A stretch of DNA of 64,000 bases, taken from positions 21,687 to 85,686 of the forward strand of contig DAOPYW010000001.1 in NCBI GenBank assembly GCA_035353055.1, given 5' to 3'. Shown here piece by piece: positions 1-52,966 of this stretch. The position numbers and the translations under genes were made by a program. The DNA comes from Bacilli bacterium (GTDB lineage: Bacteria; Bacillota_I; Bacilli_A; RFN20; CAG-826). The notes beneath the pieces were generated by a model. That model searched no databases and was not told the origin of the DNA. It saw nothing but the letters and a program-made list of their open reading frames with translations. Every line of letters begins with the position of its first letter. The stretch's first letter is position 1.

Positions 1-2331
1 GCGAGAATGAGCCAGGATTGGAAAGTGCGTTACCCATTAATTGATTTCCAAGGCAACAACGGCTCCATCGATGGCGATTCGCCTGCTGCCTATCGATATA
101 CTGAGTCAAGACTCAGCGAACTGAGCAATGAACTAGTTAAAAGCATCGACAAAAACACTGTAGACATGCAATTAAATTTTGACGATACTGAATTCGAGCC
201 AATCGTTTTGCCCAGCCGCTTTCCCAACTTATTATGCAATGGAACTGAAGGAATTGCAGTTGCTTTAGCAACTGAAATGCCACCCCATAATCTGAGAGAA
301 GTAATTGAGGCGATTATCTACCGCATCAATCACAAGACCGCCACAAGCGAAGAATTACTGACTTTTATCAAGGGTCCAGACTTCCCTGGCGGTGGCGTCA
401 TCTATGAATCTGAAGGGCTAAAGAACATTTACACAACTGGCCGCGGAAGAGTGGAGGTTGCAGCTAAAGCTGAGATTGTAAAAACTAAGGACCTTCAGCA
501 AATTGTCATCACCGAAATTCCTTATAAAGTGGTGAAAATTCAACTAGTCTATGAAATCGATAAAATCATCCATGCCAAATCAGTCAGCGGCCTATTAGAG
601 GTTCGCGACGAGAGCGATTGGAAAGGCATCCGCATTGTCATCGACTGCAAAAAAGATGCTCGCGCAGACTTGCTTTTGAAATACTTAATGAAGAAGACTT
701 CATTATTTTCTTCCTATTCCGCCAATATGGTCGCCATCGTCGATGGAAGGCCAAGAACTCTCACTTTGTTAGAATTAGTCGATGCTTATATTGCTCATCA
801 AGTGGATGTCATCACTCGTCAGAGCCAATTTGATCTGGCGAAATTCAATGAGCGATTGCATCTAGTTGTCGGTTTAATCACTGCTTCTCTTTCGATTAAC
901 GAAGTAGTGGATATCATTCGCAAAAGTAAAGATAAGGCCGATTCAAAAATCAACTTAAGCAATCGTTTTGGCTTCTCTAACGAACAGGCCGAAGCCATCG
1001 TCACCATGCCTTTATACAAATTGAGCCACACAGATGAAGAAGTTTTGGAAAAAGAGAAAATCCAGCTCGAAAAAGATATCGCGACACTTAATGAAATTCT
1101 CCAGGATTCCAATAAATTGAACCGCGTATTGATCAAAGATCTCAAGCAGATTAGTTTAAAATATGGCGATGATAGACGAACCGCTGTCGAAGGAAAAATT
1201 GAGATTGAGCCTATTGATAAGCGCGATTTAATCGCCAAAGAGAGCGTGATTGTCGCTGTCACAAGAGATGGCTACATCAAAAGATCTTCCATCAAATCTT
1301 TTAAAGGTTCGGGCAATGATTCTTTGCCAGGCATAAAGAGTGGCGATTGCCTCGTCAGTATGGGAGAAGCTTTTACTACTGATTATTTGATATGCTTCAC
1401 CAACTTAGCTAATTACACCTGCATTCCAGTGCATAAAATCCCCGATAACAAGTGGAAAGATGAGGGCGTCCACCTCAATACTTTCGTCACATTAGGTGCC
1501 GGAGAAAAAATCATCAAAGCTATCGTTGTCAGCAAGCTAAGAAATGACGTTTATCTTTCCGCATTGAGCCGCTTTGGACAAATTAAGAGAATGGCCAGTG
1601 ATGCTTTGGACTTCTCCAAAAGACCGCGCCTTTCCCGCTATATGCGTTTGTTGAGCACCGATGAAGTAATCGGAGTTCAAGTGTTGACCGGAAATAGCGA
1701 TTTACTAGTTTTAACTAGTAATGGTTATGCCACTCGCTTTAACGAAAACGAATTAGCGATTCTCAGCTCGAAAGCTGGAGGTGTTAAATCCGTGACTGGT
1801 TTGGGTAAAAATCAGACTGTGAGTTTGCTCGCTTTTGATGTCGATGAAAAATCAAAAGTCCTCATTTTCACTGATAAGGGCCATGAGCGCGTATTAGATC
1901 CTAATAAGGTTCCGTGCACGCCGCGCTTAGGAAAGCCAATGCTTGTCATGCCTTGCTTCAAAAGCGATATTCACTCTATCGTCAGTGCATGCAAAGCGAA
2001 GAGCCAAGTCGAAGGAGACTATATTGTTAATTTAAGCTTAAATGATCAGAGTGTCTTCTCCTATAAGATCGATGATTTATATCTAACCGATATAAATAAA
2101 TACGCCAAAAAGAATATTTCTATCCCAAGCAAAACACGGGTTGAATTGCTATTTAATGAAACGATTGATTATATCTATCAGGAATCTATTTCTCATCCAA
2201 TAATCGAAAAGGAAAGCAAGGAGAAAGAAACTGAAGAAAGCCAAAACATGGAAGAAGAAATCAGCGAAGGCAAACCTGGAGACGAACCTGGCACTTTTGA
2301 GCAAATATCCATATTTGATGATGATAAATAA
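1..2331 (+). CDS. Type IIA topoisomerase A subunit (GyrA/ParC family), 5'-truncated by the window edge
   Basis: The frame is open from position 1. The motif RYPLIDFQGNNGSIDGDSPAAYRYTESRL matches the GyrA/ParC breakage-reunion region. The C-terminal beta-pinwheel region ends in an acidic tail (…EEEISEGKPGDEPG…DDDK). Confidence 0.85.
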   Translation, partial: ARMSQDWKVRYPLIDFQGNNGSIDGDSPAAYRYTESRLSELSNELVKSIDKNTVDMQLNFDDTEFEPIVLPSRFPNLLCNGTEGIAVALATEMPPHNLREVIEAIIYRINHKTATSEELLTFIKGPDFPGGGVIYESEGLKNIYTTGRGRVEVAAKAEIVKTKDLQQIVITEIPYKVVKIQLVYEIDKIIHAKSVSGLLEVRDESDWKGIRIVIDCKKDARADLLLKYLMKKTSLFSSYSANMVAIVDGRPRTLTLLELVDAYIAHQVDVITRQSQFDLAKFNERLHLVVGLITASLSINEVVDIIRKSKDKADSKINLSNRFGFSNEQAEAIVTMPLYKLSHTDEEVLEKEKIQLEKDIATLNEILQDSNKLNRVLIKDLKQISLKYGDDRRTAVEGKIEIEPIDKRDLIAKESVIVAVTRDGYIKRSSIKSFKGSGNDSLPGIKSGDCLVSMGEAFTTDYLICFTNLANYTCIPVHKIPDNKWKDEGVHLNTFVTLGAGEKIIKAIVVSKLRNDVYLSALSRFGQIKRMASDALDFSKRPRLSRYMRLLSTDEVIGVQVLTGNSDLLVLTSNGYATRFNENELAILSSKAGGVKSVTGLGKNQTVSLLAFDVDEKSKVLIFTDKGHERVLDPNKVPCTPRLGKPMLVMPCFKSDIHSIVSACKAKSQVEGDYIVNLSLNDQSVFSYKIDDLYLTDINKYAKKNISIPSKTRVELLFNETIDYIYQESISHPIIEKESKEKETEESQNMEEEISEGKPGDEPGTFEQISIFDDDK

Positions 2332-2357
2332 ACATACTTTGTATGTTAATCAAAATA

Positions 2358-2385
2358 TTAGTAGTTTTTTAGTAATATTTTAGTA
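2358..2385 (+). repeat. Three TTAGTA direct repeats at exact 11-bp spacing (ATATTAGTAGTTTTTTAGTAATATTTTAGTA)
   Basis: TTAGTA occurs at 2358, 2369 and 2380. A 20-nt block is identical to the one at 16044-16063. Confidence 0.6.
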
Positions 2386-2499
2386 TTACACATTTTGTGT
2401 GTTAACTTTTTATTCAATCGTTTTAAATCGCTTAAAAGCGATATTTTGTGGCTATTACTAGGCACTCACTGGTTTTTATTATAAAATAAAGGAGAAATT

Positions 2500-3033
2500 A
2501 TGTGTTTTAGAAAAAAAGTATTTGCATACGCAAAATCCATCTACGATATCGAGACCTCCTTTTACCTTCAGCAGGGCATTAAGTACTTGCTAATCGATTT
2601 AGACAACACTCTTGATTCTTATCGCCTTTGCTATCCGACCTTGCCTGCTATCGACTTAGTCAATAGACTGAAAGAATCTGGCATTACTCCCATCATTGTT
2701 TCAAACAATCGCGGCAAAAGGGTGAGAACATATTCCCATTTTATTCAGGTGGATTGCATTAACAGCGCAATGAAACCTTTTGCAAAAAAGATTGTTGGTT
2801 TTCTAAAAGAGAAAAATATCAAACATGACGAAGTCATGCTTATCGGCGATCAAATTATGACTGATGTGGGGGCAGCAAATGCTGCTCACATAAAAGTGAT
2901 ATTAACTGATAAAATAGTTAGAGAGGATCAATGGACGACTAGATTGAATCGCCTGATTGATAAGCCCCTTCGAAGACGACTGTTCAAAAAAGGAAAATTA
3001 AAAGACTGGAGGACTTTCTATGGGAAAAGTTAA
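2500..3033 (+). CDS. yqeG: YqeG-family HAD-superfamily (IIIA) phosphatase
   Basis: The motif LLIDLDNTL is the HAD motif I. It is followed by yqeH-yhbY-nadD as in the B. subtilis yqe operon. The RBS AAAGGAG lies 7 nt upstream of the ATG. Confidence 0.75.
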   Translation: MCFRKKVFAYAKSIYDIETSFYLQQGIKYLLIDLDNTLDSYRLCYPTLPAIDLVNRLKESGITPIIVSNNRGKRVRTYSHFIQVDCINSAMKPFAKKIVGFLKEKNIKHDEVMLIGDQIMTDVGAANAAHIKVILTDKIVREDQWTTRLNRLIDKPLRRRLFKKGKLKDWRTFYGKS

Positions 3034-4162
3034 AAGAGTGATGCGATGCTATCACTGCGGTGAAGTTTTGCAAAGCAAAAAAGAGAACGAAAAAGGCTTT
3101 ATTGCTAATCAGATTTTATCCGCTCCTAATGCCGAAAAGGAAGTTTTATACTGCGATAGTTGCTATGAAAAAATGAAAGCGATCAACACTGGAATGCTCG
3201 AAAGAGATGCTGATGAAGAAATATTGACCATCCTCGAAGATGCTGTCGCTACTGATGCAGTCATCGTCTGGGTCGTCGACCTGTTTTCATTTAACGGAAC
3301 ATTAAATCCAGATGTCATTAACAAAGTTAAGAAATTAAAAGTCATCATTGCCGGAACCAAATTTGACTTGTTCCCCAAGAATGTCGAAAAAGAGCAGCTC
3401 GTTACTTTTTTAAAGGAGCGCTTTGGCGAAGCGGGGTTAATTCCTTGTGAAATCGTCTTGTTTGGCAATACTGATGGCATAGATGTCGAAAAAATGCTCG
3501 ATAAGTTATCCGAAGTCCGCGCAGGCCATGATGTCTACATGATCGGCTCCGTAGCTTCCGGAAAAACCACATTGATTAATCGAATGCTCAAATCATATAA
3601 GAATACCACTCGCCGCCCTATAAGAACCGAGACTTATCCTGGCACATCCGTAAAATTGTTAGATATTCCATTTTCGAACTCGGCTTCATTTTATGAAGTT
3701 CCAGGCTTTTCTTTGGTGACATCTGTCCTTGGAAAAGTGGAAAAAGATATCCAAAAAATGATTATTCCTAAAAAGGAAATCAAGATGACATTGAAAACCT
3801 TATCTCCGGGCGATGCTCTGCTTATCGGATCTCTCGCTAGTTATCAATTGATTAGCGGGAAAGCGACGATATTTAAGCTTTACACTGCAGAGATGGTGGA
3901 GACGAAAAAGATTCCCACCAAAAAAATGCGCGAAGTTTTACAAGACAACTTCGACAGGAAGTTTTTAAGGCCAGTCAGCTCAAGATTTACTACTTTCACT
4001 GATTACGATTTGTTTGATTACACGATGGAGAACGACGGACGGGTGCACGATATTGGTATCGCTGGCCTCTGCTGGATTTCTTTTGTCGCTAGGGGGCAAG
4101 TCATCCGCGTTTTATTCCCGAAGGGTGCCGCATTAAAAGAATATTTAGGAAAGTTGAGATAA
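3020..4162 (+). CDS. yqeH: Ribosome-biogenesis GTPase YqeH (circularly permuted GTPase with an N-terminal Zn finger)
   Basis: The N-terminal CYHCG…CDSC zinc ribbon, the GSVASGKTTLIN P-loop, and the position after yqeG all fit YqeH. Confidence 0.8.
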   Translation: MGKVKRVMRCYHCGEVLQSKKENEKGFIANQILSAPNAEKEVLYCDSCYEKMKAINTGMLERDADEEILTILEDAVATDAVIVWVVDLFSFNGTLNPDVINKVKKLKVIIAGTKFDLFPKNVEKEQLVTFLKERFGEAGLIPCEIVLFGNTDGIDVEKMLDKLSEVRAGHDVYMIGSVASGKTTLINRMLKSYKNTTRRPIRTETYPGTSVKLLDIPFSNSASFYEVPGFSLVTSVLGKVEKDIQKMIIPKKEIKMTLKTLSPGDALLIGSLASYQLISGKATIFKLYTAEMVETKKIPTKKMREVLQDNFDRKFLRPVSSRFTTFTDYDLFDYTMENDGRVHDIGIAGLCWISFVARGQVIRVLFPKGAALKEYLGKLR

Positions 4163-4164
4163 AT

Positions 4165-4458
4165 ATGCTAACTGCTAATGAAAAAAAACAATTGCGAGCG
4201 ATGGCGGAAAAATTGACCACAAGATATCAGGTCGGCAAGAACGAGATTTGTGATTCTCTCGTCTGCATGCTCGACAAAGCCTTGATTGTCAAAGAGCTGA
4301 TCAAAATAGATGTGTTAAAAGGAGCCAGCGCTTCAGTGATGGCGATCGCTTTAGACTTGTCTTCTCAGCTCAATGCTGACATAGTACAAGTAGTGGGAAA
4401 GGTCATTGTTTTATTTCGGAGAAATAAAGAAAATCCAATAATCCAGTTCAGGAAATAG
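4165..4458 (+). CDS. yhbY: YhbY/CRS1-family RNA-binding protein (YqeI)
   Basis: It is 97 aa and carries the KQLRAMAEKL…YQVGKN motif typical of the CRS1/YhbY domain. Its position is conserved. Confidence 0.75.
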   Translation: MLTANEKKQLRAMAEKLTTRYQVGKNEICDSLVCMLDKALIVKELIKIDVLKGASASVMAIALDLSSQLNADIVQVVGKVIVLFRRNKENPIIQFRK

Positions 4459-4459
4459 C

Positions 4460-5533
4460 ATGAATAAAGTCATTTTCGGAGGAGGATTCGATCCGATTCA
4501 TCTCGGCCATATCAACATGGCACGCTTAGCTTCCAAGCATTTTGATGCGGATGTAATTTTTGTTCCATCCCCCATTTCAATTTGGAAAGAAACATCGACG
4601 CCCATCGAAGATAAGATTGAGATGATACGACTTTCCATCGAAGGGTATAAACGTTTCAGCATTGACCTGTTTGAAGCGAAAAGTGGCAAATCTCACAATT
4701 ACTCCATCGACACCGTCCGCTATTTTCATAGTAAATATCCCGAAGATCATCTTTTCTATCTCATCGGAGGAGATCAAGTCAATGAATTCCACCGCTGGAA
4801 AGAAGCTGATGAGCTATCAAAACTGGCTCATGTGATTTTTTTATCTCGCCCAGGTTTTGATTTGAGCAAAGAAAATATCGAAAAGTATCACATGCAAATG
4901 CTGCCAGGAAAAGTGGTGGATGTCAGCGCGACTGATATCCGCTCATTTCACTCTTTGAAAATCGACGACAAAGTAATTAAATATATTGAAGAAAATGAGC
5001 TTTATTACATAAAGAAGATAAAATCGTTCCTCAAAAGCAAAAGATATGATCATTCGAAAGCGGTGGCGAATCTATCTTATGACATCGCCAAAAAGCATCA
5101 TCTAAGAAATCGCGATCAATTCTATATTTCTGGATTCCTCCACGATATTGGCAAAGAACAAATCGGAAACGAAATAATGAAAGAGCATTTCTCAAAATAC
5201 GCGGACTTGCCAACTTTCGCCTATCATCAATTTGTAGGAGCCTATATTGCGAAGACAGAATTCAACATCACTAATCGCTCAGTCATTAAAGCAATTGCTT
5301 TTCACGCCACAGGAACCGCGAAGATGAACCGACTCGGAAAAGTCATCTACGCCTCTGATAAAATCGATCCCACGAGAGATTACGATTCAAATTACATGAT
5401 TGAGGCGATGATGAAAGATATCGACGAAGGTTTCAAGCTAGTTTTGAGCGAGAACAGGAAATTTTTAGAAGAGAATCGCAAAAATATCAACAATCGATTA
5501 ACAAAAGAGTGCTTTGAGAATTACCTCGGTTAA
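4460..5533 (+). CDS. nadD: Nicotinate-nucleotide adenylyltransferase NadD fused to a YqeK-type HD-domain hydrolase
   Basis: The N-terminus GGGFDPIHLGHINMA is the NadD (H/T)xGH motif. The C-terminal half has an HD motif (FLHDIGKE) like YqeK. The single ORF is 357 aa. Confidence 0.8.
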   Translation: MNKVIFGGGFDPIHLGHINMARLASKHFDADVIFVPSPISIWKETSTPIEDKIEMIRLSIEGYKRFSIDLFEAKSGKSHNYSIDTVRYFHSKYPEDHLFYLIGGDQVNEFHRWKEADELSKLAHVIFLSRPGFDLSKENIEKYHMQMLPGKVVDVSATDIRSFHSLKIDDKVIKYIEENELYYIKKIKSFLKSKRYDHSKAVANLSYDIAKKHHLRNRDQFYISGFLHDIGKEQIGNEIMKEHFSKYADLPTFAYHQFVGAYIAKTEFNITNRSVIKAIAFHATGTAKMNRLGKVIYASDKIDPTRDYDSNYMIEAMMKDIDEGFKLVLSENRKFLEENRKNINNRLTKECFENYLG

Positions 5534-5605
5534 TTATCATTTTCGGTGGTGGAACCAACCACTATTTGGGCAATAATAAATTTTACAAAAGACCATCAAA
5601 CTTAG

Positions 5606-5630
5606 AAGGAGATTACTCCTTTTTTTATTT
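5606..5630 (+). terminator. Rho-independent terminator of the nadD-yqeK transcript
   Basis: The hairpin AAGGAG-ATTA-CTCCTT is followed by a TTTTTTTATTT run. Confidence 0.7.
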
Positions 5631-5719
5631 AACCTTTGAAAATATGAACAAAAAATGATTTCTTCTATCTCATTAATCTCATATTGTTTTGTTGAATCTG
5701 CAATGAGCAATACCGGTAG

Positions 5720-5730
5720 TTGTGTATAAT
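5720..5730 (+). promoter_or_regulatory. Strong -10-type promoter element TGTGTATAAT on the plus strand inside the nadD/mazF-like intergenic tract
   Basis: There is a perfect TATAAT with an upstream TGTG and no plus-strand ORF downstream. The transcript would run antisense toward the 3' end of the MazF-like gene. Confidence 0.35.
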
Positions 5731-5890
5731 CACTCGTAAAATATAGCACTTCGCATAATTTCCGTTATGTTAACTAGAATTAAAATATTGTTAGATATAT
5801 TCAGTATTTATTTTTTGCGAAATTCAAAATGTTCGCGGTTTAGTAACAGCTAATAAGTAAGTTTTCCACAGATAAGTTGTAGAAAATATC

Positions 5891-5907
5891 TACTAATTAT
5901 CTACTAA
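5891..5907 (-). repeat. Two TTAGTAG repeats (reverse orientation) at 11-bp spacing just 3' of the MazF-like gene stop
   Basis: Plus-strand TACTAA occurs at 5891 and 5902 (ATCTACTAATTATCTACTAA). Confidence 0.5.
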
Positions 5908-5909
5908 CA

Positions 5910-6491
5910 CTAAACACCACTTTTGTAATCATATTGCAATGTCAGGAGATTTATATAGGCTTGAGTAATCAATTCGACTTTGCGTTCTTCTAACCTATAC
6001 ACTTCATTAGCATGCGTGTCATATTCATTGAATTCTCCATCATTTCCAATCGCTAATTTTGTATAGATTCTCAATTTATCAATCGCTCTTATTTGATTGA
6101 TCACTGCCAAGGTGCTATGGCCGGTTTTTAAGCACTGAATGATTCCTAAATCCACATCGCTTCTAGGATGACCACCATTCTTGTTGCTTTTTAAGGGACA
6201 AACAATAACTAAAGGGTTATATTCTCCTGAGTCGGCGAGCACCACTCCAAAATGGCGATTTGAGAACTCGGCGTTGACGTTGATTCCCCAATCGAATTCT
6301 AAGATATCGCCTTTTTTCAAGTCGTAGCGCAACTTGTACTTCTCGGCAAACATTGAATATTCCAGTTGACGCTTAATCCAATCCAGCTGTTCCTTTCTTC
6401 CAATCATCTTGCTCGGCAACGAGCGATCATCGTAATCGGTGTTGTCGATCCAGCGATACTTTCCGCTTCCATAATAATTAGGGCCACTCAT
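5910..6491 (-). CDS. Extended PemK/MazF-family endoribonuclease-like protein (solo, no adjacent antitoxin ORF)
   Basis: The core KKGDILEFDWGINVNAEFSNRHFGVVL…PLVIVCPLKS…VINQIRAIDKLRI aligns with B. subtilis EndoA/MazF ([27 protein letters not shown]…QIRTIDKQRL). It has extra segments of about 55 aa at the N-terminus and about 45 aa at the C-terminus. The likely start is the ATG at 6491, preceded by AGGAGGG 8 nt upstream. The ORF-track start at 6527 would include the RBS. Confidence 0.6.
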   Translation of the reverse strand: MSGPNYYGSGKYRWIDNTDYDDRSLPSKMIGRKEQLDWIKRQLEYSMFAEKYKLRYDLKKGDILEFDWGINVNAEFSNRHFGVVLADSGEYNPLVIVCPLKSNKNGGHPRSDVDLGIIQCLKTGHSTLAVINQIRAIDKLRIYTKLAIGNDGEFNEYDTHANEVYRLEERKVELITQAYINLLTLQYDYKSGV

Positions 6492-6549
6492 AATAAATAC
6501 CCTCCTAGTAGACTTCGTTATCTCCAAAAAGCATAAAAGTTTGAAAAAT

Positions 6550-6580
6550 AAAAAAATAAGCAGGAAATGCTCTTGCTTAT
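6550..6580 (-). terminator. Rho-independent terminator of deoB
   Basis: The minus-strand hairpin ATAAGCAAG…CCTGCTTAT is followed by TTTTTTTATTTTT. Confidence 0.6.
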
Positions 6581-6602
6581 TTATTTTATAAATAACTATT
6601 AA

Positions 6603-7802
6603 TTAGTCTTTTAGCAATTCGCTAATAGGAGCACCAATTAAGTCGTCTGGCTTGCTGAGCTTGAAGTTTTTAAGAACAGTCGCTCCGATATCAGCGAATG
6701 AACTCCTCTCTTCAAGATAGCGGCCATTCTTAAACGATTTAGAACACATGAGGAGTGGGACTTTTTCGCGAGTGTGATCAGTGCCAGTCCAAGTCGGATC
6801 GTTTCCGTGATCAGCGGTGACAATCAATAAATCATCATCTCGTAAGGCTTCAATGAGCTCTTTTAATCTGCGATCAAATCTCTCGAGCGCTTTCGCGTAT
6901 CCTGGGACATCGCGGCGGTGGCCATACTCAGAATCGAATTCGACAAGATTGACGAAGCACAAGCCGGTGAAATCAAAATTCTTAGCTTCGCTAATGGTCT
7001 TATCCATTCCATCTTCATTGCTGATGGTTTTTTGTGTTTTAACCACCCCGTATTGATCGAAGATATCGCCAATTTTTCCGACGCAGGTGGTCATGAAACC
7101 ACCATCTTGCAAAACGTTCATAACTGTCGGTTTGTTTGGCTTCAATGCTAAATCGTGACGATTAGGTGTTCGCTTAAAGTTTGAAGCGCAAGTGCCGATG
7201 AATGGGCGAGCGATAATGCGTCCAACCATCCATTCAGGCTTCATGCATAATTCACGAGCAATCTCGCAGCAGCGATATAGCTCTTTGACGCCAGTGACTT
7301 CTTCGTGAGCAGCGATTTGGAGAACGCTGTCAGCGGAGGTGTAGACGATGAGAGAATCATCTCTCATTTGCTGCTCGCCAAGCTCTTTTAAGATTTCGGT
7401 TCCTGAAGCGGAATAGTTGCCGATCACTTTGTGGCCAGTTCGCTTTTCTAATTCGGCAATCAGCTCTAGAGGGAAGCCAGTATCCGTGAAGGTCTGAAAT
7501 GGTTTGATGGTGTAAATGCCCATCATTTCCCAGTGGCCAGTCATCGTGTCTTTGCCATTGCTCTCTTCTCGAGCTCTCGCGACATAGGATTGAGGATGAG
7601 CCACCTTAGTTGTTCCCACGATTGGAGCGAGGTCTCCAATTCCTAAAGCGTTCATCGTTGGGATGTGTAATCCATTGGCTCCCTCAGAGATGTGAACGAT
7701 GGTATTGCTGCCAACATCGCCGTATTTATCAGCGTCAGGTTCAGCTCCGATGCCGACAGAGTCGGCAACGATTAAAAATATCCTTTTGAATTTATACGCC
7801 AT
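6603..7802 (-). CDS. deoB: Phosphopentomutase
   Basis: MAYKFKRIFLIVADSVGIG is the DeoB N-terminus. The start was moved to the ATG preceded by AAAGGAG; the track start at 7829 would include the RBS. Confidence 0.85.
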   Translation of the reverse strand: MAYKFKRIFLIVADSVGIGAEPDADKYGDVGSNTIVHISEGANGLHIPTMNALGIGDLAPIVGTTKVAHPQSYVARAREESNGKDTMTGHWEMMGIYTIKPFQTFTDTGFPLELIAELEKRTGHKVIGNYSASGTEILKELGEQQMRDDSLIVYTSADSVLQIAAHEEVTGVKELYRCCEIARELCMKPEWMVGRIIARPFIGTCASNFKRTPNRHDLALKPNKPTVMNVLQDGGFMTTCVGKIGDIFDQYGVVKTQKTISNEDGMDKTISEAKNFDFTGLCFVNLVEFDSEYGHRRDVPGYAKALERFDRRLKELIEALRDDDLLIVTADHGNDPTWTGTDHTREKVPLLMCSKSFKNGRYLEERSSFADIGATVLKNFKLSKPDDLIGAPISELLKD

Positions 7803-7835: not shown

Positions 7836-8717
7836 TTACTTTTTTCTCATATACAAATCATAAGCGCTCAAAATTCGTTTCGTTGAAACGTGAGTGTATA
7901 TTTGGGTGGTCGCGATATGAGCGTGACCGAGCATTTCTTGAACCGCGACCAGCTGGGCACCATTCTCTAAAAGATGGGTGGCAAAGCAGTGGCGAAGAGT
8001 GTGGGGAGAAATCGGGACATCGATTCCCGCTAGAGCGGCGTATTTTTTCACTTGTTTAAAGAAGAATTGCCGGGACAAAGGTTTTCCATATCTATTTAGA
8101 AATAGATACTTGCTATCTCTGCCCTGATTTTTGCATCGCACTTCATCGAGATATCTAGCGATGCATTCAATTGCGTAATCCCCTAGGGGAACCTTCCGCT
8201 CTTTGGCTCCTTTGCCTAGCACGGTTACAATGCCATTTTTGAGATTGGCTTTTCCTCTTTCCAGCATCAAAAGTTCGCTGACTCTCAGCCCCGTCGCATA
8301 CATGGTTTCAAGCATGGCGCGATCGCGGATGCCTTCGGGCTTTTCAGCATCGGGCATATCGAGCAAATGGTCGACTTCTTCGACAGTCAAGCAATGAGGC
8401 AAATGCTCGGGCTTTTTTGGCGATTCAATCTCCGGAATCTCATCTTGAAGATAGCCTTCGGTCTTTAAAAAGATGAAGAAGCTCTTCGTGGATGAAAGCC
8501 GGCGCAGAGCAGTTGAGGCTGACAGACCAATTGAAAACTCGTAGCGGAGAAAATCCAATAGATCAGTGCCGAGCAAATCATCGACTTGCTTTCGCTGCTT
8601 GAAAAATGCGAAAAATCGTTTCAAATCCTCTTGATAAGATTTTACTGTCTGATTAGCGAGGCCTTTTTCTGCCAGCAAATACTGCTCATATAGCTCAACG
8701 GCGTCTTGAATATCCAT
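7836..8717 (-). CDS. xerD: Tyrosine recombinase XerD/XerC family
   Basis: The C-terminal catalytic region HTLRHCFATHLLENGA…LGHAHIATTQIYTHV carries the R-H-R-Y residues. It is adjacent to deoB, as ripX-drm are in B. subtilis. Confidence 0.8.
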   Translation of the reverse strand: MDIQDAVELYEQYLLAEKGLANQTVKSYQEDLKRFFAFFKQRKQVDDLLGTDLLDFLRYEFSIGLSASTALRRLSSTKSFFIFLKTEGYLQDEIPEIESPKKPEHLPHCLTVEEVDHLLDMPDAEKPEGIRDRAMLETMYATGLRVSELLMLERGKANLKNGIVTVLGKGAKERKVPLGDYAIECIARYLDEVRCKNQGRDSKYLFLNRYGKPLSRQFFFKQVKKYAALAGIDVPISPHTLRHCFATHLLENGAQLVAVQEMLGHAHIATTQIYTHVSTKRILSAYDLYMRKK

Positions 8718-9958: not shown

Positions 9959-11809
9959 CTAAATAATTTTGATGACGTCTTCCGGCAGCAATGAAAACTC
10001 GGCTTTTTGCTCTTCAATGCAAGCGTGATTGACGAATACATTGGGAATAGCTTTGATCACAACTTGCCCAGCATAGCGATGCTTGAGCAATTCGGCGGCT
10101 AATGCTTGAGCGAATCCGCTTTCCGCAGCGTAAGGATCATAGATGACGATTTTCTCATAGCTTAATAAATCGATAATCGCATCTGAATCCATGGGTTTTT
10201 GATAGATAGCATTAAATAAAGTGACGGAAAGATCATTTTCCTTAATCAGCTCTTTGAGCTTTTCAATCTCGGGACCGACAGCTACGATGGCGATTTTGGA
10301 ACCAGTTAATTCTTTTATCCATTTCCCAAAGGGAATGGTGGCGATTTTCACGGGTGGCTGGTAGTGGAAAACTCTCTCGCGAGGGTAGCGAATGCAAAAA
10401 ACGCCATGATGATTAAATGATTCTTCCACCAAAGTGCGAGCTTGTTCTGGCGTGGCGGCCATGGTCACGACCGTATTGGGAATCCCCATCAAAAAAGCTT
10501 CATCAAAGATGCCTTGATGGGAATTGCCATCTTTGCCCACGAGCCCGCTGCGATCAATGAGCAGTGTGGCGTCGAGTTCAATTCTCGCTAAATCATGATT
10601 GACTTGGTCATAGGCTCTTTGTAAAAATGTTGAATAAATAGAAATGATGGGGTGGAAACCGCTAATTGAAAGACCTCCAGCCATCGTCACGGCGTGCTCT
10701 TCGGCTATGCCGACATCGATGCAGCGGTCCGGGAATTTCGCGAAGACTTCCGAAAGATGGCTTCCATAGCCAGTCGCAGGGACAATCGTCACAGCATCCT
10801 TATGCTCGCTCATTACTTCGATGAGATAATCATTAAAGATTTGCGACCATCCGACGCCATTTTCATATATTTGCTCGCCAGTTTCAGGATTGAAGACATG
10901 AACTCCATGCCACAATCCCTTATCATCATCTTCAGCGAGTTTATAGCCTTTTCCTTTTATTGTCTTTATAAAGACAACGACTGACTTATCGGTTCTCTTG
11001 GCTCTAATGAGGGCTTTTTCCATAGCTTTGATATTGTGGCCATCCACTGGGCCGATGACAGAGAAACCGAAGGAGTCAAAAATGTTTATTTTTAAAATGT
11101 GCCTTTTAAACCAGTTTTTCATCGCGACGCCGGAAGCATACATTTTGCGGCCGAGCTTAGTGCCGCACATTAATCTCTTGAAGAAGTGCTTGGATCGGCG
11201 ATAAAAAGAAGAGGTGGAAAAGCGACGAAATACTTTGGCCAAGCCGCCGACTGGTTTGGAAATTGACATATTGTTATCGTTTAAAACGATAATCATCTTG
11301 TGCTTGCTTGTCCCAGCATCATTGAGGCCTTCAAAGGCCAAGCCGTTGACAATTGAGGCGTCGCCGATAAAGGAAACAACATCATAATTCTCTTTTTTCA
11401 AGTCTCGAGCAGTCGCTAAACCCAGTCCAGCGCTGATCGAAGTTGAACTGTGCCCGGCTTCGAAGTGGTCATAGATTGATTCTTTGACATCTTGGTAGCC
11501 AGCGGTTCCATCTTTTTGTCTTAATCGTTCTAGAGAACGACCAGTCAATAATTTGTAGGTATAGCATTGATGCCCAACATCGAAAATTAATTTATCTTTG
11601 GCGAAGTTAAAGACACGGCATAGCGCAATCGTGGCATCCACGACTCCAAGATTTGATGACAAGTGACCACCGTTCTTTGCGGTGACGCGAATAATGTGCT
11701 TGGCGATGTCGTCGCTTAAGACATCTAGCTCTTGATAAGATAGGTCCTTCAAGAAATCTGGATTTCTAATGTTTGATAAATCAATGTGCTGTATATCTTT
11801 GGGTTTCAT
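9959..11809 (-). CDS. dxs: 1-deoxy-D-xylulose-5-phosphate synthase
   Basis: GGHLSSNLGVVDATIALCRVFN and DVGHQCYTYKLLTGR are the Dxs TPP-binding signatures. It is 616 aa. Confidence 0.9.
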   Translation of the reverse strand: MKPKDIQHIDLSNIRNPDFLKDLSYQELDVLSDDIAKHIIRVTAKNGGHLSSNLGVVDATIALCRVFNFAKDKLIFDVGHQCYTYKLLTGRSLERLRQKDGTAGYQDVKESIYDHFEAGHSSTSISAGLGLATARDLKKENYDVVSFIGDASIVNGLAFEGLNDAGTSKHKMIIVLNDNNMSISKPVGGLAKVFRRFSTSSFYRRSKHFFKRLMCGTKLGRKMYASGVAMKNWFKRHILKINIFDSFGFSVIGPVDGHNIKAMEKALIRAKRTDKSVVVFIKTIKGKGYKLAEDDDKGLWHGVHVFNPETGEQIYENGVGWSQIFNDYLIEVMSEHKDAVTIVPATGYGSHLSEVFAKFPDRCIDVGIAEEHAVTMAGGLSISGFHPIISIYSTFLQRAYDQVNHDLARIELDATLLIDRSGLVGKDGNSHQGIFDEAFLMGIPNTVVTMAATPEQARTLVEESFNHHGVFCIRYPRERVFHYQPPVKIATIPFGKWIKELTGSKIAIVAVGPEIEKLKELIKENDLSVTLFNAIYQKPMDSDAIIDLLSYEKIVIYDPYAAESGFAQALAAELLKHRYAGQVVIKAIPNVFVNHACIEEQKAEFSLLPEDVIKII

Positions 11810-11852
11810 TTATACTATTTTTCTACTAATTTTTAACTAGTGAAAATCATTT

Positions 11853-16047: not shown

Positions 16048-16075
16048 TTAGTAGTTTTTTAGTATTTTTATAGTT
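16048..16075 (+). repeat. TTAGTA/TAGT direct repeats at 11-bp spacing immediately upstream of the tkt RBS
   Basis: TTAGTA occurs at 16048 and 16059, with TAGT at 16071. The block is ATATTAGTAGTTTTTTAGTA. Confidence 0.6.
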
Positions 16076-35089: not shown

Positions 35090-35235
35090 AATGTCCCTCC
35101 TTATCAATTCACTAATGACTCGCTATTAAGGTATCTTAATAGATTTTAAAACCTTTTCTATGCGGTTGTAGCTTGTGAGGCGACAACGTTTGTAATATAA
35201 CATATGTTATAAAGGGGTGTCAATTTACTTTTCAC
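35090..35235 (-). promoter_or_regulatory. rplU promoter plus a structured 5' leader of about 100 nt (possible L21-leader-type autoregulatory element)
   Basis: On the minus strand TTGACA-17nt-TTATAT is followed by an imperfect hairpin (GTTGT/ACAAC arms with offset pairing) ahead of the RBS. Firmicutes rplU operons commonly carry an r-protein leader. Confidence 0.35.
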
Positions 35236-44224: not shown

Positions 44225-44241
44225 TTAGTAGTTTATTAGTA
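44225..44241 (+). repeat. Two TTAGTAG repeats at 11-bp spacing abutting the start of the ysoA-like gene
   Basis: ATATTAGTAGTTTATTAGTAGTTTTTTG; TTAGTA occurs at 44225 and 44236. Confidence 0.6.
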
Positions 44242-44447
44242 GTTTTTTGTGTTTCCTTAACTTTGTTAATGTCATGTAGGTTATAGATTTTTCGATTCTC
44301 TTTTAAACAGCCAAATTTTATCTGACCAGGAAGAAGAATAACCAATCTGTTTTTCCTAACGCTTATTATACTGCATCTCCAACTTCTCACCAACAATTTG
44401 CGATATTTTTTGTTCTCTATTTCCAAGATTTGACTATAATAGTTACG

Positions 44448-52699: not shown

Positions 52700-52966
52700 T
52701 AATAGCCAAAGACAGTGCGAAAGAGAAAGATATCACGAATCTGATAGAGAGTTTGCGGTTGGTGGAAGCAAATAGAGAACGATATGCAATATACACTTTC
52801 AAGTCGAATCGCTGAACTGACAGTAGGCGACTCCGGAAATCCTCCGTGACAGGGATAAGAGTTATATGACTCGATGAGTGATGGCAAACGCCATAAGATG
52901 GGTGGTACCGCGGAAATCATACGATCTTCGTCCCATAACTAGGGGGAGAAGATCGCTTTTTATTTT
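52700..52966 (+). promoter_or_regulatory. T-box riboswitch leader upstream of a tryptophanase/tyrosine phenol-lyase-family gene
   Basis: The T-box motif AAGATGGGTGGTACCGCGG sits at 52894-52912. The terminator ACGATCTTC…GAAGATCG plus CTTTTTATTTT is at 52921-52966. TTGACA at 52671 serves as a -35. Confidence 0.75.

Follow-up and report, generated by a model that had tools for sequence, protein, structure and literature searches.

A solitary long-form MazF-fold gene next to the dif region of uncultured low-GC Bacilli

Introduction

The locus described here raises the question of what replaces the antitoxin when a gene of the MazF type stands alone. MazF toxins are the textbook two-gene addiction modules, and a MazF-fold gene which has no antitoxin gene and is kept in dozens of species much as housekeeping genes are is a natural case of a toxin fold turned into a resident protein. 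The gene is found in a stretch of 64,000 nucleotides from a Bacilli bacterium (GenBank assembly GCA_035353055.1, contig DAOPYW010000001.1, positions 21,687 to 85,686); the whole of this stretch is called the window in the following, and positions are counted from its first letter. The PemK-like gene, as we shall call it, codes for 193 amino acids, and a gap of 376 nucleotides separates its stop codon from the stop (5533) of the convergent nadD-yqeK gene (Table 1). The initial annotation of the window suggested that an RNA antitoxin is made from this gap, or that an antitoxin domain is fused to the toxin, or that the MazF fold has been recruited to a different function.

We consider it fairly probable that the gene is domesticated and solitary, that its product is a long-form MazF-fold protein, presumably a ribonuclease, which is controlled through its own expression and not by an antitoxin, and that the adjoining tract is a separate dif region.

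The gene has no partner and is conserved at one position

The open reading frame is preceded by a Shine-Dalgarno sequence, GGAGGG, and residues 59-156 of the translated protein match the Pfam family PemK_toxin at 31.1 bits (gathering cut-off 23.1), which bears out the MazF/PemK-like gene that had been described. The gap, the deoB terminator upstream and the TTAGTAG repeats at the stop codon were likewise found as described. The 111 nucleotides upstream of the gene, in which the deoB terminator is included, leave no room for an antitoxin gene. The statement that neither flank carries a small antitoxin reading frame holds in the window and across the flanks of about 50 orthologous loci, in which no conserved small open reading frame was found; every conserved cluster of small frames is a shadow inside the PemK-like gene or inside the upstream gene.

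A database search gave 173 relatives of 177-228 residues and 50-80% identity, all of them from uncultured metagenome-assembled genomes (MAGs) of the "Bacilli"/Erysipelotrichales type, and an exhaustive profile search brought the PemK-like family to 556 representatives. The setting of the gene is the same in all of 47 species-level genomes and in additional contigs: it follows (dinB-)xerD-deoB and is convergent with nadD-yqeK-yhbY-yqeH-yqeG, with about 2 kb of ATP-binding cassette (ABC) transporter genes or other genes interposed in its neighbourhood at some loci. Even members as remote as E 1e-20 to 1e-33 hold the same chromosomal position. The orthologous proteins are 45-80% identical to that of the window, which is as much as the housekeeping neighbours show, or more. 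Pairwise ratios of nonsynonymous to synonymous substitution rates (dN/dS) are 0.03-0.13 for the PemK-like gene and 0.03-0.21 for deoB, xerD, nadD-yqeK and yqeH; these values are rough, dS being partly saturated. The gene is not a recent insertion. Within the clade it has been inherited vertically at a fixed position in at least 50 species under strong purifying selection.

Some sister lineages are without the gene. Eleven of the low-GC loci with the synteny xerD-deoB...dif...nadD carry a PemK-like reading frame, and none was found at six loci (L093, L108, L111, L119, L123 and L136) by tblastn or by the hidden Markov model of the family run on all reading frames. One of these genomes, that of L123, is no more distant from the window than many which carry the gene. 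The gene was lost, or never gained, in these lineages. The suggestion that it is an accessory insertion is therefore half right: sister lineages of the same synteny lack it (L093, L123, L111, L136) and its distant homologues are prophage genes, but within the clade it is vertical, fixed in position and under purifying selection. It does not stand in the place of yqeL/yqeM, as had been proposed, since L054 still has rsfS (yqeL), on the far side of dif.

Two side observations concern the gene and its upstream neighbourhood. In one MAG from horse faeces (L051, 5001-5482) the PemK-like frame is broken into two tblastn segments and the reading frame restarts at 5186, which is either a pseudogene or an assembly error. 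A two-gene ABC-transporter cassette (a lipoprotein and a BPD_transp_1 permease) lies between deoB and the elements on the dif side in L004 (4221-5953), L111, L119, L136 and L108, with or without the PemK-like gene; L111 and L119 have, besides the cassette, a small Cys-rich reading frame (66-84 residues) on the opposite strand.

Relationship to prophage genes

The distant homologues, 205-290 residues long and 25-40% identical, are prophage genes. In a Veillonella prophage (Veillonella magna; L062/L063, 4261-7632) the homologue comes right after a CI-like repressor and ahead of a serine integrase, and that of Staphylococcus phage P954 (gp02; L185, 574-4652) is flanked by the repressor region and the integrase. 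The prophage copies are likewise without an adjacent antitoxin partner. The long phage proteins of these loci have 245-290 residues, some with a coiled-coil insertion in the barrel. The best match of the window protein among the phage families is PHROG_1412 (E 6e-16), whose database label "antitoxin mazE-like" appears to be a misnomer; the match spans the PemK core. Literature searches gave no functional characterisation of the long phage PemK-like proteins, and nothing specific on solitary MazF or on prophage PemK. The gene would probably have been captured long ago from this family of temperate-phage lysogeny modules and then inherited vertically, under purifying selection, in uncultured low-GC Bacilli.

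A phage origin brings up the alternative that the gene was domesticated from the defence of a prophage. Its product would be a nuclease for abortive infection or superinfection exclusion, triggered by phage attack in the manner proposed for solitary toxins of lysogeny modules, and its place beside dif would be a matter of chance. The position of the homologues between CI-like repressor and integrase in the Veillonella prophage and the Staphylococcus phages, the PHROG_1412 match and the loss of the gene in some lineages all speak for it, and foreign genes commonly land in DNA near the terminus. Defence genes are, however, usually patchy and turn over fast, whereas this gene occupies one locus in at least 50 species with a dN/dS of about 0.05; no PADLOC defence model matches the protein, and no other phage genes flank it. 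We regard a defence gene as improbable.

The protein

The protein is of the PemK/MazF fold with extra segments. The direct match to S. aureus MazF in the PDB is weak (E about 0.02), and the family profile aligns with EndoA through the C-terminal helix. An AlphaFold (AF2) model built with only 24 aligned sequences was unusable (mean predicted local distance difference test, pLDDT, 51); an alignment of 147 sequences was used instead and gave a pLDDT of 92 and a predicted template modelling score (pTM) of 0.84. The model consists of a short N-terminal beta-hairpin, a helix (25-51), the barrel (62-138) and a C-terminal helix (169-184), with an insertion of some 25 residues at about 140-168 which is modelled with less confidence. 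Foldseek gave template modelling scores of 0.76-0.80 to MoxT and to the MazF proteins of S. aureus and B. subtilis, and both in sequence and in structure the protein is nearer to MazF/Kid than to CcdB. Of the two terminal extensions described initially, the N-terminal one is real; the C-terminal "extension" of about 45 residues is, by the AF2 model and the profile alignment, largely the normal C-terminal helix of MazF displaced by the insertion.

The extra segments could themselves be the antitoxin. The N-terminal helix (about 25-51), the insertion (140-168) or both would then fill the RNA-binding groove and keep the toxin auto-inhibited until a signal or proteolysis sets it free. The helix is highly conserved from residue 34 or so onwards, with W38, R41, Q42, E44 and Y45 invariant in the subfamily, and it is modelled with high confidence. 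The first 30 residues or so are variable, as expected of a linker or a degron, and a separate antitoxin is missing in the flanks, both of which would suit a fused antitoxin. Against it, the helix is present throughout the family, phage homologues included, and so looks like an integral structural element; nor did it match any of the MazE, PemI, AbrB or ribbon-helix-helix (RHH) families when compared with these. A self-contained toxin of this kind is unlikely, if somewhat less so than the other alternatives considered here.

The tract downstream of the gene is a dif region

When the gaps between the PemK-like gene and nadD of close relatives are aligned, two conserved islands stand out from otherwise diverged sequence, and both recur in nearly every species. 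The first island is the dif site of Table 1. Its arms match the published dif ACTTCGCATAATGTATATTATGTTAAAT at 21 of 22 positions, and the dif site of E. coli is GGTGCGCATAATGTATATTATGTTAAAT (PMC2731167). All 52 orthologous loci which extend far enough have dif, with conserved arms and a 6-bp centre which varies between species. The 376-bp tract, which had been described as AT-rich and non-coding, is the dif region of the chromosome; it is not featureless, but contains the dif site and a conserved motif array.

That the tract lies at the replication terminus is well supported but not proven. To the left of dif, the genes at 1-5533 and those of a further 7.5 kb (plsY-parE-parC and others) lie mostly on the plus strand; to the right, from 5910 to about 50 kb, nearly every gene lies on the minus strand. 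Gene orientation thus converges on dif over at least 70 kb, which is what one expects of a replication terminus. The coding-strand skew at 4-fold degenerate sites is symmetric, -0.42 to the left and -0.44 to the right of dif. The assignment is made because of dif, of gene orientation and of this symmetric composition, and not because of the bulk skew.

Two other identities of the tract were tried and rejected. It is not oriC, considered on account of the DnaA-box-like motifs and the AT-rich spacer, as it contains a canonical dif and is a point of convergence of the genes. An IMEX, a mobile element which integrates by means of Xer, or another dif-module insertion was likewise rejected: no second dif-like site flanks the gene, and the matches on the reverse strand are the same near-palindromic site.

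The motif array at dif

A DnaA-box-like motif stands on the XerD-arm side of dif at a distance of 100 +/-2 bp, where it reads TGTGGAAAA or TGTGGATAA, the complement of TTWTCCACA. Of 52 loci, 35 have the exact motif TGTGnAWAA at -100 +/-2, and most of the others have a variant with one mismatch; the box of the window itself has one mismatch to the 9-mer TTATNCACA where relatives carry exact TTATCCACA. Around dif there are 3.3 such motifs per kb as compared with 0.10 per kb elsewhere in the loci, a 33-fold difference. The spacer of about 85 bp is kept in length and not in sequence. Farther from dif than the box follow two to four T(T/A)AGTAG units in an 11-bp register at -148, -137, -126 and -115 from dif; these repeats are conserved, and in 11-bp phase with dif, in 47 of 47 aligned loci. 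At some loci further TTATNCACA boxes are seen about 40 bp beyond the XerC arm, and their counterpart in the window is TTATACACA; close relatives have TTATGCACA, TTATTCACA or TTATCCACA at this position. A metagenome scan with the dif pattern gave 80 loci, from bacteria of 23-73% GC. The terminus is an unexpected, atypical location for DnaA boxes, and the boxes are DnaA-box-like by sequence. Literature searches gave no described counterpart of a DnaA-box-like motif fixed 100 bp from a chromosomal dif, and nothing specific on accessory DNA of dif.

The gene-less genomes tell to what the array belongs. Four of them (L093, L111, L119, L136) keep repeats and box, and two more (L108, L123) keep the repeats, all at the same distances to dif; in L093 the repeats come directly after the deoB stop codon. 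In L056 the repeats begin about 90 nucleotides past the stop codon while the distance to dif is unchanged. Because the array persists with the same spacing in relatives without the gene, it belongs to dif and not to the PemK-like gene.

T(T/A)AGTAG-N4 repeats of 11-bp period are also present in other intergenic places of the window, at 2358-2386, 16048-16070 and 44225-44242 on the plus strand and at 11809-11829 on the minus strand. Their settings are after parC and upstream of yqeG (conserved in about 20 species), directly upstream of two minus-strand genes, and, in other species, between dinB and xerD; they also stand just ahead of the start codon of dxs, which lacks a Shine-Dalgarno sequence. 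The repeats are a general DNA motif and probably serve as the operator of a protein which binds tandem sites.

These findings bear on the proposal that the toxin is held in check by an RNA antitoxin, either a type I antisense RNA or a type III repeat RNA, with the TTAGTAG repeats as its functional part and with TGTGTATAAT as the promoter from which transcription would head for the 3' end of the toxin gene. The sequence TGTGTATAAT at 5721-5730 on the plus strand, claimed as an extended -10, is indeed present. The promoter scan called nothing there, and gave three promoter-like sites in the region where 4.9 are expected from shuffles. The plus strand of close relatives reads CATAAC, AATAAC or GATAAA at this position; the invariant T of the -10 is lost in L007, L008 and L010 while TTATNCACA stays, so that the element is conserved as a box and not as TAnnnT. 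RNAalifold applied to 47 orthologous elements of 207 nucleotides, on both strands, gave no consensus structure beyond the invariant dif palindrome and no covarying pairs, and Rfam gave only noise in the tract, at the gathering threshold for the whole window and at E<=10 for 5400-6700. It should further be noted that the repeats are 11-nucleotide units downstream of the gene and not units of 34-45 nucleotides upstream of it, that the same repeat pairs stand at unrelated intergenic sites, that in L056 they have moved away from the stop codon and kept their distance to dif, and that repeats, box and dif persist at the same spacing in gene-less relatives. What is conserved in the tract is dif, together with a DnaA-box-like motif and DNA repeats, which leaves the RNA antitoxin highly improbable, the least credible of the alternatives. 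A small protein encoded in the tract was also considered and rejected: a 28-residue frame at 5767-5853 (plus strand) is cut to 8 residues in L007, and no conserved small frame lies downstream of the stop codon.

The proximity of gene and array suggests yet another alternative, a MazF/CcdB-fold protein which is not a nuclease and has been recruited to the biology of the terminus, where it would act on topoisomerase IV or gyrase as CcdB does, on Xer/FtsK, or in fork arrest at the dif array. The junction between gene and array is the only one in the neighbourhood which never has insertions, while the deoB-to-gene gap and the dif-to-nadD gap have both taken up extra genes. Moreover, parE-parC and xerD are nearby, both canonical catalytic positions of the protein are substituted in an ungapped alignment (see below), and tus and rtp are likewise encoded beside a ter site (PMC10331603). 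On the other hand the array is intact in gene-less lineages and thus does not depend on the protein; proximity means little in a neighbourhood which is syntenic as a whole; sequence and structure are nearer to MazF/Kid than to CcdB; and the phage homologues are unconnected to dif. We give this alternative little credence. The same holds for its extension to the array, by which the latter would be an undescribed terminus-organising element (a replication-fork trap of a third kind, or the accessory DNA of a Xer site on the chromosome) on which the MazF-fold protein works, for example with topoisomerase IV, Xer or DnaA, rather than as a ribonuclease; this too seems a doubtful proposition.

Proposed control of expression

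We return to the reading which we prefer, that the protein is controlled through its expression. By this reading the product would be an endoribonuclease, dimeric and sequence-specific, whose active site has been remodelled, with His80 and Lys101 at the positions of Arg25 and Thr48 and with Arg79 and Ser102 adjacent to them. No promoter was recognised by the promoter scan for the PemK-like gene directly behind the deoB terminator. In the leaders of most orthologues the Shine-Dalgarno sequence is paired with a pyrimidine tract to form a hairpin, for example CCTCCTA-N8-TAGGAGG, CCCTCTA...TAGGGGG and GCCCCT...AGGGGG. When the 47 leaders were folded one by one, the mean probability that the Shine-Dalgarno sequence is paired upstream was 0.81, and it was above 0.7 in 70% of them; for xerD, yhbY and yqeH in the same loci, used as controls, the probability was 0.33-0.40, with 6-23% above 0.7. 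Individual hairpins of the orthologues have z values of -3.7 to -7 as compared with shuffles. The hairpin is often followed by a U-run (L004 5968-5991, L033, L036, L064 and others) and could also act as a terminator or attenuator.

Since the gene stands behind a terminator without a detectable promoter and the Shine-Dalgarno sequence is buried in a hairpin in most orthologues, we infer a gated expression, which would leave no need for an antitoxin. The cell would tolerate the protein because its synthesis is throttled and not because an antitoxin binds it, and the throttle would consist of the missing promoter behind the deoB terminator together with a ribosome-binding site which, in most orthologues, is locked in the hairpin.

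Observations which weigh against this reading

The reading is not without difficulties, the first of which is the active site. Arg25 and Thr48 are the catalytic residues of EndoA (R29 and T52 of E. coli MazF). In an ungapped profile alignment His80 falls at Arg25 and Lys101 at Thr48, so both canonical catalytic positions are substituted. Arg79 adjoins His80 and Ser102 (Ser/Thr102) adjoins Lys101, and a gapped phmmer alignment instead pairs Arg79 with Arg25 of EndoA; Arg79 is, however, not conserved across the wider family. Two residues, E75 and P99, do not vary across the wide family, and a third, H80, is found in at least 90% of the sequences. With the canonical positions substituted in the ungapped alignment, Arg79 not conserved and E75, P99 and H80 kept, a nuclease activity is plausible but not assured from the sequence.

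Further difficulties concern control. The leader hairpin of the window itself has -9.2 kcal/mol and a z of -1.07, which is not significant, and relies on G-U pairs; RNAalifold on MAFFT-aligned leaders gave no consensus. An unstructured antisense RNA may be made from the tract, and an antitoxin may be encoded in trans elsewhere in the genome, the search for a partner having covered the flanks of the locus.

Finally, the bulk GC skew keeps its sign at dif. In the coding regions of the window C-ending codons are strongly preferred over G-ending ones, and every gene group has a coding-strand GC skew of about -0.42 to -0.47 at 4-fold sites. This codon preference cancels the usual skew linked to replication, and the bulk skew therefore cannot locate ori or ter in this genome. 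GC skew was rejected as a proof of the terminus: it does not flip and is dominated by the symmetric preference for C-ending codons.

Features of the locus

The features are collected in Table 1. The identities of the flanking genes were confirmed as phosphopentomutase, XerD-type recombinase, DinB, the NadD-YqeK fusion and YqeH. NadD (nicotinate-nucleotide adenylyltransferase) and YqeK (an Ap4A, diadenosine tetraphosphate, hydrolase with an HD domain) form one fused protein of 357 residues (4460-5533, plus strand), as they do in related genomes. The rsfS gene, which L054 retains beyond dif, is missing in the window. Over the whole window the only curated RNA families detected by Rfam are a T-box leader (52706-52938, plus strand, 101.5 bits) and a ribosomal protein L21 leader (35105-35177, minus strand, 44.5 bits).

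Table 1. Positions of the PemK-like gene, its signals and the elements around dif in the window.
Feature	Position	Strand	Remarks
Intrinsic terminator of the yqeG-yqeH-yhbY-nadD/yqeK operon	5604-5623	+	terminator scan
Second DnaA-box-like 9-mer, TTATACACA	5721-5729	-	reads TGTGTATAA on the plus strand; agrees with the DnaA box by sequence
dif, XerCD chromosome-dimer resolution site, ACTTCGCATAA-TTTCCG-TTATGTTAACT	5748-5775	+	28 bp; unique in the 64-kb window
DnaA-box-like 9-mer, TTTTCCACA (TGTGGAAAA on the minus strand)	5862-5870	+	exactly 100 bp from dif, on the XerD-arm side; one mismatch in the window
Two TTAGTAG direct repeats	5890-5907 (5901-5907, 5890-5896)	-	11-bp period; start 2 nt after the stop codon
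Gene of the long-form PemK/MazF-fold protein	5910-6491	-	ATG start, 193 aa; stop codon TAG at 5910-5912
Shine-Dalgarno sequence GGAGGG	6500-6505	-	8 nt 5' of the ATG; read directly from the sequence
Leader hairpin, Shine-Dalgarno sequence paired with upstream U-rich tract	6501-6531	-	folding; weak in the window, strong in most orthologues
deoB intrinsic terminator hairpin	6554-6582	-	terminator scan; T-run after the stem on the minus strand; directly upstream of the PemK-like gene
XerD-type tyrosine recombinase gene	7836-8717	-	2 kb from dif; NCBIfam TIGR02225 XerD 326.1 bits (cut-off 329.6); PRK00283 309 bits (cut-off 279)

Comparison with known systems

A solitary MazF-fold gene allows one to ask what replaces the antitoxin. 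The dif site could serve as a terminus marker in the assembly and orientation of genomes of uncultured, reduced-genome gut and rumen Bacilli. The array, if functional, has a bearing on the organisation of replication termination and dimer resolution in bacteria other than the models E. coli and B. subtilis.

Compared with the type II toxins MazF, PemK, Kid and EndoA (Pfam PF02452) the PemK-like protein is some 80 residues longer, owing to an N-terminal hairpin, a helix of 27 residues and an insertion of about 25 residues, and in the ungapped alignment it has His80 and Lys101 at the positions of Arg25 and Thr48. Its gene has no MazE/PemI gene alongside, and whereas the genes of these toxins are patchy and mobile it keeps a fixed chromosomal position under purifying selection in a large clade. 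There is also a likeness to the long phage PemK-like proteins (PHROG_1412; for example P954 gp02, phage 77 ORF017 and the Veillonella magna prophage protein), with which it shares the N-terminal helix, the PemK core, the E...H and PL(K/T)S motifs and the solitary state with no antitoxin alongside. The phage proteins differ in their length of 205-290 residues, in the coiled coil that some have in the barrel, and in their location in the lysogeny module between repressor and integrase.

The locus resembles neither RNA-controlled type of toxin-antitoxin system. In type I systems a small hydrophobic toxin peptide is paired with an antisense RNA made in cis or in trans, whereas the protein here is a soluble MazF fold of 193 residues. 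The type III systems ToxIN, CptIN and AbiQ have pseudoknot RNAs made from repeats of 34-45 nucleotides upstream of the toxin; the repeats here have 7+4 (11) nucleotides, lie downstream, show no RNA structure, and occur also in gene-less genomes and at unrelated loci.

The dif site is like those of E. coli and B. subtilis in having 28 bp with two 11-bp arms and a variable 6-bp centre, a better conserved XerD arm, a single copy (within 64 kb), a position where gene orientation converges, and a xerD gene nearby. Chromosomal dif sites have been described as needing no accessory DNA (PMC2731167). At this locus, in contrast, an array of about 150 bp and of fixed geometry, with a DnaA-box-like motif at 100 bp and repeats in 11-bp phase, flanks the XerD arm. 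The plasmid sites cer and psi have their accessory DNA, bound by ArgR/ArcA/PepA, on the XerC side, whereas the array described here lies on the side of the XerD arm.

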